From the IMG/VR virus record IMGVR_UViG_2585427593_000001, positions 56,832-120,831 of that record: a stretch of DNA of 64,000 bases. One strand, written 5' to 3'. The stretch is from a virus. Taxonomy: Duplodnaviria; Heunggongvirae; Uroviricota; Caudoviricetes. Positions 33,709-39,980 of the stretch are shown here, one piece after another; positions within the stretch are counted from its first letter, which is position 1, and each line of letters opens with the position of its first letter. The position numbers were made by a program, and so were the translations under genes. The notes under the pieces are model-generated. The model was not told where the DNA came from and did no database searches. It saw nothing but the letters and a program-made list of their open reading frames with translations.

Positions 33709-33785
33709 GGCCCCGGTAGCTTAGGCCAAAGCAGCACCCCCAGAAGGTGCTTACCGAGGTTGGACTCCTCGACGGGGCCACACCA
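33709..33785 (+). ncRNA. degenerate tRNA-like element
   Basis: A 7-bp acceptor (GGCCCCG/CGGGGCC) is followed by ACACCA. An anticodon-like arm (GCACC-CCCAGAA-GGTGC) and a T-like arm (CGAGG-TTGGACT-CCTCG) are present, but the T-loop lacks C56 and there is an extra nucleotide before the acceptor 3' strand. Confidence 0.25.
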
Positions 33786-34291
33786 GTTTTCGCGTTGTCC
33801 GCTGGCGTCGCGAGCCAGCGCGTCTCTGGAAGGAGTTTCGTTCCTTTCGCCTTCCAGAGACATCTTTCGAGGCGGTCAGACTGAAGACCTTCCCGCCTCA
33901 CTTGAGCGCCTGCATCTGTATGGTGTCAGTCAGGATAATAGGCCCACCGTATGGGAGCCCGCTACGAGTTTCGGCGTTGAGTGCGTAGGAGCCCTGGCCG
34001 AGTGTGACAGCTCGGATATCACTGGCCGTCAGCCAGAGGGGTATATGCGCTCAACGCCACCGAAGCACCCTTTGGGCGCGACTGTAAGGATGGCGGGTAG
34101 CAGACAAGTCCGTGCCGAGCTTTCGCAGAGCCAAAGGCGCAAACGTCAGCGTAGGCGTGACGAGCGGAGAGAGAGCCGCACAAGCTCTGGCTTCCGAGCC
34201 ACCATCTTTCAGCACCGGTCATAAGGTGGATCAATGGTGTTCAGGGATTTACGGAAGCAGTCGGGTAGCGCGAGCTACAGGCCAACCGGCT

Positions 34292-34318: not shown

Positions 34319-34445
34319 GTTTCGAATGCCATCTTCCTGACGGGCATGTCGGTGGATGGAGCAGCCAACAGCGAACCCGGTTGGCGCCAGCAATGGCTCG
34401 GAGGGAGTATGCCCATAGGCTCCCTCCGGAAGGTTCATTGCATGA

Positions 34446-34532
34446 GGTCTGGTAGCGAAGCGGTTGAACGCGCAGGACTGCAAATCCTGTTCCGAAAGGG
34501 CGTCGCAGGTTCGAATCCTGCCCAGACCTCCA
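34446..34532 (+). tRNA. type-II (long variable arm) tRNA with anticodon GCA, U73 and encoded CCA
   Basis: Hand-folded cloverleaf: acceptor GGTCTGG/CCAGACC; D-loop AAGCGGTTGAA; anticodon arm CAGGA-CTGCAAA-TCCTG; 15-nt variable arm; T-arm GCAGG-TTCGAAT-CCTGC; discriminator T followed by CCA. Confidence 0.55.
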
Positions 34533-34556
34533 ATCTTATTCCCGCGCACAACCTAC

Positions 34557-34606
34557 CGCACTCCGCGATTAGCTGCGCTATAAACGATAAGTAAGCAATT
34601 ACTTAG
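34557..34606 (+). promoter_or_regulatory. phage promoter plus hairpin upstream of the GHKL gene
   Basis: CCGCACTCC-N-GCGCTATAAAC followed by TAAGTAAGCAATTACTTAG. Confidence 0.6.
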
Positions 34607-34619
34607 TGAGGCACGAAAG

Positions 34620-37025
34620 ATGCAGGTTTCAACGATCGCAGAACTCGACACGCACGCCGTTATCGGCGGTGGCGAGGCGAAATCTTTCGGCATGGACGAC
34701 TCTGCCGAGCTCTATGCCCTTCTGTCCGACAAGATCTACCGCGACAAGAAGCGCGCCGCGATGCGCGAGACCATCTGTAACGCTTGGGACGCGCACATCT
34801 CCGTCGGAAAGACCGATCTCCCGGTCGAGATCACTGTCACCGATACCGAGATCAAGATCCGCGACTTCGGCCCAGGGATCCCTGACGCCTTGATGCATTC
34901 GATCTATTGCATCTACGGCAAGTCAACGAAGGTGAAGGACGACAAGGCGACCGGTGGCTTTGGCCTCGGTTCGAAGTCGCCTTTCGCCGTCACGGACCAC
35001 TTCAACGTGGTCAGCATGTATGAAGGCATCAAGTCGGTCTACGCCATCTCTCGCGGTGGCGTCGCAACCGACGGCAAGCCCGACATGCGCTTGATGATGT
35101 CGGTCCCGACCACCGAAAGCGGCCTCCTTGTGTCGATCCCGGTGAAGAGCCGCAGCGACCGTTACGAGTTCGAGGGTCATATCCGCGCCGTCGTCAAGCA
35201 GGGCGGTATGCTCGTAAACATGAACGGCACGCCGCTTGACCGTTTCAACTGGACCGAGGCGCGCAAGACCGAATACGCCATCATCCCGCAGGGTGATCTG
35301 ACCGAGGGCCGCGTCTACGTTCTCTACGGCACCGTCATGTATCCGCTGACGACGACCGACGCGAAGATCCGGAACCTGGCTCAGAAGGCGGTCGATCTCT
35401 GCGGCACGATGTCGATCCTGGTGCTGCTGCCGCCTCCGAATTCCATTGGCGTAACGCCCTCGCGCGAGGCGCTGTCGTTCTCGCCCGTCACGGACGAAAC
35501 GCTGATCCGGCTTCTGAATAAGGTGATCGCCCAGATTCGCGCCGCGCTCCCGGCAGCCAGCCGGCGCGTTCTTCGAAGCTGGGTGGAAAGGCAGGGCCGC
35601 AAGGCCCTCGACACTCACTACAACTCCACGAGGATGTCGCCTGGCCTCCTTCCGACTGCCGACCTTATTGCCGAACATGCGATGAGGACGGACAGCTACG
35701 CCCATTCGAAGGGCGGCGTCGAGAGGCGAGCAGTCGCCAAGATCGCACAGAAGCTATGGCGCGACGATCGCCGCTATTATCGTCGCGCGGTAAAGACCTA
35801 CGGCACCGGCGCCGAGCTGGAGTTCCAGCGCACGGCAATGCCTGCGCTGCGGATCGCTTCGAAGATGGGTCTGCTCAAGGATCTGATGGTGTTCGATATC
35901 TATCGGCACAAGTTCGGCATTCCCGGCCCGAAGACGCTACCGATTACAGAGATTCCGAGGACGGGCTACGTTTTCCCGGTCCTTTGTGTCGCCCGCAATA
36001 TGCGCGACCTGCGCCCTCAGCTGAGCAATAGCTCCACGAGCTTCCGTTACAACATTTCCGGCGAGCACTTCTACACCGCTGGCCTGGTCATGCGGCAGTG
36101 GACCGACAAGAACCTCAAGGCGTTGCGCGAGCTCTGCGACCACTACAACATCGAGCTTCACCTCTTCGATTATGAGGATGCGAAGAAGAACCGCAAGCCG
36201 CCCGTCAAGCGCGAGGGCGCGGAGACGTATTTCGTCCTCGAGGATTTCGGGGCCGAGCGCCGCAACAAGATCAAGACCCCTATCGTTCCGACCTGCATCG
36301 CGCCTGACTTTTACCTGATGACCTGGCAGCGAGATGCAAAGCTTCGTCTGCCGTTCGCTGCTGCACACCTGCTTCAGCAGATCACCGAGCTCTATCCCAA
36401 TACTGCCCTTATCACGACGAAGGCGCAGGAAGAAAAGCTTCAGAAGGCAGGCGCACGCAGTCTCGGAAAGGTCGTTGCCGAGCGTGTCGCCAAGTTGGGC
36501 AATAGTCGCGAAGTCCTCTACGGCGAAGCTATCCGTCATGGCCGCATGATCGATGAGGGAGACGGCTACTATCACAACTCCATTCCGGAAGCGCTCGTGA
36601 AGCTATCCAAGATGGATATGCGCTTCGCCAAGCTGCTGTTCCCGGACAAGGCGACGCCCGGCAAGGCGCACGCTGAAGCCTCGCTGCTTTGGGATTTCCT
36701 GCTCGGCCTCGAATATCAGCCGGAAGACACCCGCGAGGTCGTCAAGACCGCGATGGCCGGCGTGCGCCAGGCGATCAAGGAGACCTTCCCGCCGATCACC
36801 AAGAACCGGGTCGAGCAGCTCTACTCCTACTTGGGGCCGATCCGTGGCGCCAGCATCATCAGCGACTTGCACTACAGCCCGAGGTCCGATCTCGCGCTCG
36901 ACATGATCGAAACGATCAAGTTCCTGCAGCGCCGGCACGAAGCCAAGAAGAACAAGATCAAGGCGGCAAAGGTCGCCATCACCCCGGCAGCCAATGCCAA
37001 CATCGCCCTTAAGGAGGCAGCATGA
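34620..37025 (+). CDS. GHKL (Bergerat-fold) ATPase domain protein, 801 aa
   Basis: N-box ETICNAWDAH, G1 box IRDFGPGIP and G2 box GGFGLGSKS are present. There is no Toprim or HisKA domain. A strong promoter and hairpin lie upstream. Confidence 0.65.
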   Translation: MQVSTIAELDTHAVIGGGEAKSFGMDDSAELYALLSDKIYRDKKRAAMRETICNAWDAHISVGKTDLPVEITVTDTEIKIRDFGPGIPDALMHSIYCIYGKSTKVKDDKATGGFGLGSKSPFAVTDHFNVVSMYEGIKSVYAISRGGVATDGKPDMRLMMSVPTTESGLLVSIPVKSRSDRYEFEGHIRAVVKQGGMLVNMNGTPLDRFNWTEARKTEYAIIPQGDLTEGRVYVLYGTVMYPLTTTDAKIRNLAQKAVDLCGTMSILVLLPPPNSIGVTPSREALSFSPVTDETLIRLLNKVIAQIRAALPAASRRVLRSWVERQGRKALDTHYNSTRMSPGLLPTADLIAEHAMRTDSYAHSKGGVERRAVAKIAQKLWRDDRRYYRRAVKTYGTGAELEFQRTAMPALRIASKMGLLKDLMVFDIYRHKFGIPGPKTLPITEIPRTGYVFPVLCVARNMRDLRPQLSNSSTSFRYNISGEHFYTAGLVMRQWTDKNLKALRELCDHYNIELHLFDYEDAKKNRKPPVKREGAETYFVLEDFGAERRNKIKTPIVPTCIAPDFYLMTWQRDAKLRLPFAAAHLLQQITELYPNTALITTKAQEEKLQKAGARSLGKVVAERVAKLGNSREVLYGEAIRHGRMIDEGDGYYHNSIPEALVKLSKMDMRFAKLLFPDKATPGKAHAEASLLWDFLLGLEYQPEDTREVVKTAMAGVRQAIKETFPPITKNRVEQLYSYLGPIRGASIISDLHYSPRSDLALDMIETIKFLQRRHEAKKNKIKAAKVAITPAANANIALKEAA

Positions 37026-39299: not shown

Positions 39300-39980
39300 A
39301 TGACCCTGATCGTCCACAAGCACGAACTGATCCAGCAGCCGTCGCCGGCTCCCGCTGATCGCGGCCCCTACGTTCACAGCGCCAACGGTCGCAAGATCTA
39401 TCCGTTCGATCCGCGGCCGGAGGAGATCTCGATCAACGTGATCGCCCATCACCTGGCGAACAACAATCGCTGGAACGGCGCAACGCAGCACCGGCGTTTC
39501 AAGACGCGCATCTCCTTCTCCGTTGCCGAGCATTCGGTTCTCGTCGCCAAGTATGTCGTCGAGGAGCTGAAGCTGCCGGAATACGAGCTGGAAGCCCTGC
39601 TTCATGACGCGCCGGAATACCTGTTCGGCGATATGATCCGTCCGTTCAAGCATCATCCGAGCATTCACCCGATCATCAAGCCGATCGAGGATCGCGCCGA
39701 AGAGGTAATTGCCAAGCGGTTCGGTCTGCTCTTCCCGCTGCCGAAGGAAATCAAGATCGCCGACGAGGCTGTCTGCGCCGCGGAACAGCAGCAGATCGTG
39801 CCGGAAGATGCCCGCGAGCAGTGGCGCGCAATCGATACCAGCCGCATTGCGCCCTACGAAATCGAGATGATGGATGCCTACAGCGCCAAGGAATATTTCC
39901 TGATGGCCTATGAAAGCGCCATTCGTCGCCGGCCTGATTTCCAGGCACTGCCGTCTTCTGTTGAGATATATTCTAAGTAA
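39300..39980 (+). CDS. HD-domain phosphohydrolase
   Basis: The H...HD motif is present (VAEHSV...LLHDAPE). Confidence 0.65.
   Translation: MTLIVHKHELIQQPSPAPADRGPYVHSANGRKIYPFDPRPEEISINVIAHHLANNNRWNGATQHRRFKTRISFSVAEHSVLVAKYVVEELKLPEYELEALLHDAPEYLFGDMIRPFKHHPSIHPIIKPIEDRAEEVIAKRFGLLFPLPKEIKIADEAVCAAEQQQIVPEDAREQWRAIDTSRIAPYEIEMMDAYSAKEYFLMAYESAIRRRPDFQALPSSVEIYSK

Follow-up and report, generated by a model that had tools for sequence, protein, structure and literature searches.

A tRNA-Cys(GCA) gene with a long variable arm in a Rhizobium phage and phage-plasmid lineage

By textbook rule, a long variable arm belongs only to the tRNAs for Leu, Ser, Sec and, in bacteria, Tyr, and it is exploited in different ways by SerRS, LeuRS and TyrRS. 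In E. coli, G2:C71 and C11:G24 are SerRS elements; A73 and U35 are strong determinants for bacterial TyrRS.

The major determinants of CysRS are U73 and the GCA anticodon, and in minihelices U73 by itself suffices (PMC9976931). The enzymes of E. coli and H. influenzae also require G15:G48; this requirement is known in few bacteria and is lineage-specific (PMC9976931). The long-armed selC* tRNA-Cys is reported to be cysteinylated by CysRS (PMC5389517). Since it is charged despite its long arm, such an arm would by analogy be compatible with CysRS. Allo-tRNAs are serine acceptors; their acceptor and T stems are in an 8/4 or 9/3 arrangement, and a tetraloop closes their long D-stem (PMC5389517). 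Here we describe a long-armed tRNA gene with anticodon GCA, found in a 64,000-nt stretch of phage DNA (the window, meaning the whole stretch that was analysed).

Fold, conservation and setting of the tRNA gene

ARAGORN identified an 87-nt tRNA-Cys(gca) gene with exact ends (Table 1). Against Rfam RF00005 the gene scored 64 bits (E=1.4e-11; gathering score 29), and the alignment showed a 7-bp acceptor stem, a 5-bp T-stem and an 11-nt insertion within the variable region. The features expected of RF00005 are present: a 7/5 cloverleaf, U8, A14, G18G19, U33 and a T-loop of the form UUCRANY. Reading of the sequence added A9, G15 and A37. The D-stem has 3 bp (G10-C25, C11-G24 and G12-C23), and the 9-nt D-loop is 2 nt longer than that of E. 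coli cysT. The variable arm contains the hairpin UCCGAAAGGG, and the last C of the variable region is C48, the Levitt partner of G15. The gene has the hallmarks of class II: a variable stem-loop of more than 10 nt, a 3-bp D-stem, a non-Watson-Crick 13:22 pair, and nucleotides 20a and 20b. An energy-only fold independently gave the acceptor, anticodon, variable (UCC/GGG with a GAAA loop) and T helices.

An earlier note on this DNA had described a cloverleaf with a 7-bp acceptor, GG in the D-loop, a TTCGAAT T-loop and an encoded CCA, and all of these were recovered (sequence, ARAGORN, Rfam). Its 15-nt variable arm, its GCA anticodon in the loop CT-GCA-AA and its U73 were likewise confirmed (sequence, ARAGORN). 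ARAGORN, which the note had proposed as a check, returned the same tRNA-Cys(gca) at the same position and strand. The note had also allowed that the variable region might fold as part of a class I structure. This was not seen: the MFE fold gave a 3-bp GNRA-capped hairpin, and Rfam treated the segment as a variable-region insertion. A scan for promoters and terminators around the gene found none, and there was no sigma-70-like promoter upstream.

Table 1. Positions of the tRNA elements and of nearby RNA-repair genes in the window
Feature	Position	Strand	Basis
Complete tRNA-Cys(GCA), class II-shaped, encoded CCA included	34446..34532	+	ARAGORN, Rfam RF00005, covariation in relatives
Acceptor stem, 5' strand GGUCUGG (partner 34522-34528)	34446..34452	+	seven Watson-Crick pairs; 2:71, 3:70 and 6:67 double-changed in relatives
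D-arm: stem GCG/CGC, A13.A22 mismatch, loop AGCGGUUGA, G18G19, extra 20a and 20b	34455..34471	+	sequence, Rfam alignment
Anticodon arm: stem CAGGA/UCCUG, loop CU-GCA-AA	34473..34489	+	ARAGORN anticodon at position 35; 27:43 and 28:42 co-vary
Anticodon GCA (G34-C35-A36)	34480-34482	+	sequence, ARAGORN
Variable region UUCCGAAAGGGCGUC, 15 nt: U, stem UCC/GGG, GAAA cap, CGUC	34490..34504	+	MFE fold
T-arm: stem GCAGG/CCUGC, loop UUCGAAU	34505..34521	+	Rfam alignment
Acceptor stem, 3' strand CCAGACC	34522..34528	+	covariation in relatives
Discriminator U73, major CysRS identity element	34529	+	sequence
Genome-encoded CCA end	34530..34532	+	sequence
RNA ligase PF09414	38679-39290	+	E=4e-16
HD/YfbR-like phosphohydrolase	39300-39980	+	
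RtcB PF01139	44143-45618	+	E=8e-26

The window belongs to the Rhizobium siphophage/phage-plasmid group of B1VFA, V1VFA-S, RHph_X66 and plasmid pRlX6 (PMC12509600), with 93-94% identity across ~70% of a 24-kb stretch. The tRNA gene lies in a 1-kb intergenic region, with a small hypothetical gene on one side and rIIA/rIIB on the other; dUTPase, P-loop NTPase, RNA ligase and RtcB genes are further neighbours. The same tRNA is present in B1VFA (92% identity, annotated 'tRNA-Cys-GCA'), on a 117-kb plasmid of Shinella zoogloeoides (92%, unrelated flanks) and on an IMG/VR contig, L010 (89%).

We aligned five sequences, the window tRNA and four relatives with 82-92% identity whose flanks were unrelated or partly so. 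In this alignment 97% of cells were paired, and six pairs were double-changed (2:71, 3:70, 6:67, 10:25, 27:43 and 28:42). The observed pairing and covariation values were matched by 0-1 of 500 shuffles, and slid controls fell to 23-45% paired. The variable arm of the four close relatives had a YCC/GGG stem, with U.G changed to C-G, and a loop of GAAA, GGAA or GUAA, always of GNRA type. U73 and GCA were invariant. Pair 2:71 was G:C, A:U (B1VFA) or U:A (L010), and 3:70 also varied. All relatives retained G49:C65, and U8 was unable to pair with C65. The upstream flanks of the window, B1VFA and Shinella genes could not be aligned with one another while the tRNA was conserved, indicating that the gene is maintained as a unit.

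The slot itself is variable within the lineage. RHph_X66 and the Sinorhizobium plasmid pLM21S1 carry in it an ordinary 76-nt class I tRNA-Cys (GCA, U73), whose acceptor and D-arm differ from those of the window tRNA; downstream of it, homology with the flank of the window tRNA extends to the start codon of rIIA. The class I and class II tRNA-Cys in this slot are evidently two unrelated genes that serve as interchangeable cassettes. V1VFA-S has no tRNA at the slot. The gene at its rIIA position encodes 468 aa and not 801 aa (L003 4104-5660 versus window 34446-37025), which suggests that a deletion took the tRNA together with the 5' part of rIIA. In B1VFA, the tRNA (L001 344-430) is located 344 nt from the left genome end, within the direct terminal repeat of 3.6 kb reported for this phage. 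Every virion DNA is therefore expected to contain the gene twice, and the gene would arrive in the cell at the start of DNA entry.

Two further elements were observed upstream. The 120 nt immediately preceding the tRNA (34326-34445, plus strand) form three hairpins with an MFE of -53.4 kcal/mol (z=-2.9). Most of this stretch (34326-34436) is 95.5% identical to a segment of pLM21S1 (L005 3001-3111), where the class I tRNA-Cys lies ~680 nt further along. The structured stretch could function as a leader or small RNA, or represent a mobile module. The second element, 700 nt upstream of the tRNA (33709-33781, plus strand), is degenerate and tRNA-like. ARAGORN called it a 73-nt 'tRNA-Leu(cag)' without a long arm, and Rfam gave 42.7 bits under lax filters only. 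It has C33 in place of U33, a UUGGACU T-loop, and an acceptor mismatch or register ambiguity; in the copy of RHph_X66, the anticodon loop and the acceptor are different. The element has the look of a tRNA in decay and may correspond to the 'pseudo' tRNA listed in B1VFA and V1VFA-S. Positions 33816-33860, 3' of it, form a strong hairpin.

Cys codon usage, a further check proposed in the earlier note, gave no sign of enrichment: of ~16,500 window codons, 0.87% were for Cys (131 UGC and 12 UGU), as counted on crude gene calls (long ORFs with high GC3) and judged without a host reference. Because Cys codons are not enriched and V1VFA-S lives without the tRNA, codon demand offers no obvious reason for the gene. 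We also considered whether its main role might lie outside decoding: as a decoy or resistant substitute against a tRNA-Cys nuclease, in the processing or regulation of rIIA/rIIB, as a recombination hotspot, or as a decaying gene. The lack of Cys codon enrichment, the mosaic slot (class I, class II or empty among sister genomes) and the degenerate element upstream agree with such a role. So do the genes for an RNA ligase, an HD phosphohydrolase and RtcB, 4-11 kb from the tRNA. However, the universal tRNA nucleotides, U33, A37, CCA and the Cys identity elements are intact and conserved, and changes in the stems are compensatory. Such a pattern belongs to a translating tRNA and not to a decoy or pseudogene. 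A resistant substitute would itself have to be charged with cysteine, so that this variant extends the reading that we prefer, a cysteine-charged tRNA used in translation, and does not replace it. A main role outside decoding is unlikely.

The RNA-repair genes suggest that the phage mends RNAs (perhaps tRNAs) after cleavage by host defences, and that the lineage meets tRNA-cleaving defences. The long arm could hide tRNA-Cys from a host nuclease or quality-control factor that reads the compact core, while charging by CysRS would be kept. The presence of RNA ligase and RtcB genes in the same phage fits this idea, which we offer tentatively and regard as doubtful. If the arm is a counter-defence, it would represent a structural escape from host nucleases, in addition to mutations of the anticodon loop.

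Occurrence of long-armed tRNA-Cys

IMG/VR was scanned with the pattern TGCAAA-N(20-34)-GGTTCGAATCC, which gave at least 120 matches, and ARAGORN was run on those loci. Among the matches listed, at least 45 were tRNAs of 82-93 nt with anticodon GCA (at least 39 unique); 38 of the 39 unique tRNAs had a perfect 7-bp acceptor and U73. When variable-region length was left free (N 12-34), a second IMG/VR scan sampled 79 unique GCA tRNAs, of which 8 (10%) were at least 80 nt long. We also scanned the genomes of 185,579 species, one genome each, with a stricter pattern that additionally required U73 and CCA. Of its 64 matches, 27 were long-armed GCA tRNAs, and the others were 3' fragments of tRNAs or matches by chance. 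Some 20 of these 27 had at least 5 tRNA genes in an 8-kb locus, and these were mostly from Burkholderiales. Nine bacterial arrays, with 15-28 tRNA genes each, had a long-armed GCA tRNA as their sole Cys tRNA, and in the same arrays separate tRNAs served the Ser and Tyr anticodons.

The collected long-armed GCA set formed at least 47 clusters at <85% identity. Among cultured phages, B1VFA and D6, a Pseudomonas jumbo phage, carry such a tRNA under the plain annotation tRNA-Cys, and one long-armed tRNA-Cys was found on a 603-kb replicon of Jeotgalibacillus. Strict family patterns gave 0 matches in IMG/VR and the metagenome collection, a looser metagenome pattern gave 5 loci, none near the window tRNA in sequence, and E. 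coli genomes showed short T-arm matches only. Our literature search, with subscription journals mostly outside its reach, found no account of a long-armed tRNA-Cys with the canonical 7/5 fold, whether in phages or in tRNA arrays. Long-armed tRNA-Cys appears common yet unremarked; the oddity goes unnoticed because annotation pipelines label the genes plain 'tRNA-Cys'.

An inserted variable arm was also seen, in the IMG/VR and genome loci, on tRNAs for Thr (UGU), Asn (GUU), Asp (GUC), Lys, Ile (UAU), Met, Val and Trp (loci L026, L034, L040, L043, L045, L054, L072, L085, L093, L096, L181, L188 and others). The discriminators of these other arm-bearing phage tRNAs were mostly those expected for their own anticodon family: U in 7/8 Thr, G in 4/5 Asn, G in Asp, A in 2/3 Lys, and A in Ile, Met and Val tRNAs. 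Since the discriminator follows the anticodon, the long arm is not bound to serine identity. Some arrays (L134, L135, L145, L181, L184 and L188) contain Leu tRNAs (CAG, UAG, CAA, GAG) of 75-78 nt without a long arm, which share these arrays with long-armed tRNA-Cys. Loci L006, L007, L074, L128 and L156 gave CUA anticodons (ARAGORN 'Pyl') and four-base anticodon calls (ccta); these tRNAs may be stop-codon recoding or frameshift suppressors.

It is possible, though we hold it more improbable than not by a good measure, that long-armed tRNA-Cys forms a distinct and widespread mobile-element lineage (phages, phage-plasmids and arrays) in which the arm is selected and not neutral. If true, phage tRNA sets would routinely cross the line between class I and class II, as in the arms on tRNAs for Cys, Thr, Asn, Lys and Ile and in the Leu tRNAs that have no arm. 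Such sets are natural experiments on how far the class I/class II rule can be bent.

Identity elements and the predicted amino acid

The Cys identity nucleotides, U73 and G34-C35-A36, are both present in the window tRNA. Its Levitt pair is G15:C48 and not the E. coli-type G15:G48; the class I tRNA-Cys of RHph_X66 appears to have A15:U48 (hand numbering). To place these features in context, 66 collected long-armed GCA tRNAs (65 for arm geometry) were compared with the other tRNAs of the same phage and array loci. U73 was found in 65/66 long-armed GCA tRNAs and in 85/88 class I Cys tRNAs, whereas A73 was found in 46/49 Tyr and 85/87 Leu tRNAs. The pair G2:C71 was present in 16/66 long-armed Cys (24%), 32/88 class I Cys (36%) and 115/120 Ser tRNAs (96%). 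For A3:U70 the counts were 13/66 (20%), 13/88 (15%) and 99/120 (83%), respectively.

Arm geometry was also compared. Long-armed Cys tRNAs typically had a 3-bp variable stem and 3 unpaired nucleotides before the T-stem; 46/65 were Tyr-like and 2/65 Ser-like. At the same loci 24/32 tRNA-Tyr were Tyr-like, and 59/76 Ser tRNAs were Ser-like, with a 5-7 bp stem and a 1-nt spacer. The window variable arm, a 3-bp stem with a 4-nt 3' spacer, follows the tRNA-Tyr pattern and not the Ser geometry. Variable-region hairpins in the long-armed set averaged 3.4 bp, versus 2.81 +/- 0.09 in shuffled controls.

On the strength of these sequence features, the window tRNA is probably a cysteine acceptor with class II architecture. 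After processing, it would adopt a normal L-shape, to which the variable region adds a 3-bp hairpin capped by a GNRA loop. Host CysRS would charge it with cysteine through U73 and G34-C35-A36, the variable arm being tolerated and giving no identity signal. The charged tRNA would then decode UGC and UGU as cysteine, and could supplement or replace host tRNA-Cys during infection or phage-plasmid residence. The earlier note had named, as one of two options, a Cys-charged tRNA of aberrant architecture; the conservation of U73 and GCA, the acceptor statistics, the arm geometry and synteny all favour this option.

The other option in that note, a Ser-like body that could be serylated, fares less well. 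Under it SerRS would charge the tRNA, wholly or partly, via the long arm, and UGC/UGU would be read as serine. The long variable arm, the 3-bp D-stem, 20a/20b, G1:C72, G2:C71 and C11:G24 are consistent with this. U73 was held to be compatible with SerRS by the authors of the allo-tRNA work (PMC5389517), and it occurs in 30/120 Ser-anticodon tRNAs of the same phage and array loci, so that U73 alone leaves room for SerRS. However, the Ser acceptor set (G2:C71, A3:U70, G73) is incomplete in the window tRNA, which has G2:C71 with U3:A70 and U73, and its relatives B1VFA and L010 have lost G2:C71. The low frequencies of G2:C71 and A3:U70 across the class are Cys-like, and the arm geometry, in the window tRNA as in all but two members of the class, departs from that of Ser tRNAs. 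Moreover, the long-armed GCA tRNA fills the Cys slot of arrays, and in RHph_X66 the locus of the window tRNA is taken by a class I tRNA-Cys. Serine charging appears very unlikely from these comparisons.

That the tRNA is a tRNA-Tyr derivative which TyrRS charges, putting tyrosine at cysteine codons, is extremely improbable: tRNA-Tyr genes are its nearest non-Cys neighbours and share its type of variable arm and D-arm, but the Tyr set (A73, U35) is replaced by U73 and C35, and acceptor stems of the class lack the Tyr-type G2:C71/G3:C70 bias.

The origin of the scaffold was examined separately, by comparing the D-arm, variable region and T-arm with panels of Tyr, Ser, Leu and class I Cys tRNAs. 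For the D-arm, tRNA-Tyr genes and a class I tRNA-Cys from a metagenome, L289, tied at 85% identity. L289/L290 are 77-nt class I tRNA-Cys with the same D-arm as the window tRNA and ~77% identity to it (hand count); in the alignment, a clean gap of 10 nt falls in the variable region. A D-stem of 3 bp and purine 13 are also found in ordinary tRNA-Cys genes, E. coli cysT among them. Their D-stem is already class II-like, so likeness of the D-arm to Ser or Tyr tRNAs says little. The Ser-like D-arm described in the earlier note is a real resemblance, yet one without Ser specificity, as the arm type is common to tRNA-Tyr and ordinary tRNA-Cys. The L289/L290 alignment and the tRNA-Cys D-stems make it plausible that a small GNRA hairpin of 10 nt and two D-loop nucleotides were inserted into a tRNA-Cys. 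Re-moulding of a tRNA-Tyr (U35 to C, A73 to U) appears equally plausible.

With cysteine as the predicted amino acid, the combination of U73 and GCA seems sufficiently robust to confer Cys identity on a foreign scaffold. Long-armed tRNA-Cys could serve as scaffolds for engineered orthogonal Cys or Sec decoding.

Comparison with known tRNA systems

Class I tRNA-Cys, as in E. coli cysT and RHph_X66, resembles the window tRNA in GCA, U73, the loop YU-GCA-AA and the 7/5 arrangement. It also shares the 3-bp D-stem with a purine 13.A22 mismatch and unconstrained 2:71 and 3:70 pairs, and in RHph_X66 it lies in the same position upstream of rIIA. It differs in its variable region, 4-5 nt versus the 15-nt hairpin of the window tRNA, and the D-loop of the latter is longer by 2 nt. 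The E. coli tRNA has G15:G48 where the window tRNA has G15:C48.

The selC* tRNA-Cys has a long arm, U73 and a GCA or UCA anticodon (PMC5389517), a combination also found in the window tRNA. It is tRNA-Sec-like, with an 8-bp acceptor, a 4-bp T-stem (bulged in some) and a longer anticodon stem (PMC5389517). Its hosts are anaerobic bacteria with selenocysteine machinery, and it sometimes lies beside selB*/cysS* (PMC5389517). We rejected the window tRNA as a selC* member, given its 7/5 arrangement and 5-bp anticodon stem. A possible sixth anticodon-stem pair, G26.U44, is lost in B1VFA (A26, A44). Neither selB* nor cysS* is among the tRNA neighbours named above.

The earlier note had called the gene allo-tRNA-like. 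The likeness extends to a long variable arm on a non-serine anticodon and to U73, present in some allo-tRNAs. Identity with this group was rejected: the window tRNA is 7/5 and neither 8/4 nor 9/3, and its D-arm, with a stem of 3 bp and a 9-nt loop that holds a normal G18G19, is not of the long, tetraloop-closed kind.

Bacterial tRNA-Tyr(GUA) resembles the window tRNA in its D-arm (GUAGCGAAGCGG..AACGC) and its anticodon loop (CUG-N-AAA). In both, the variable stem has 3 bp and is flanked by spacers of 1 nt (5') and 3-4 nt (3'), and identity to an Anoxybacillus tRNA-Tyr is 74%. The two differ at U35 and A73 of tRNA-Tyr versus C35 and U73 of the window tRNA; that is, the main TyrRS determinants are exchanged for those of CysRS.

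Nematode nev-tRNAs are reportedly charged according to their arm, with leucine, and not according to the anticodon. The eukaryotic nev-tRNAs (Hamashima et al., cited in PMC5389517) resemble the window tRNA in carrying a long arm on anticodons of class I families. The tRNAs described here come from bacteria and phages, and their discriminator agrees with the anticodon.
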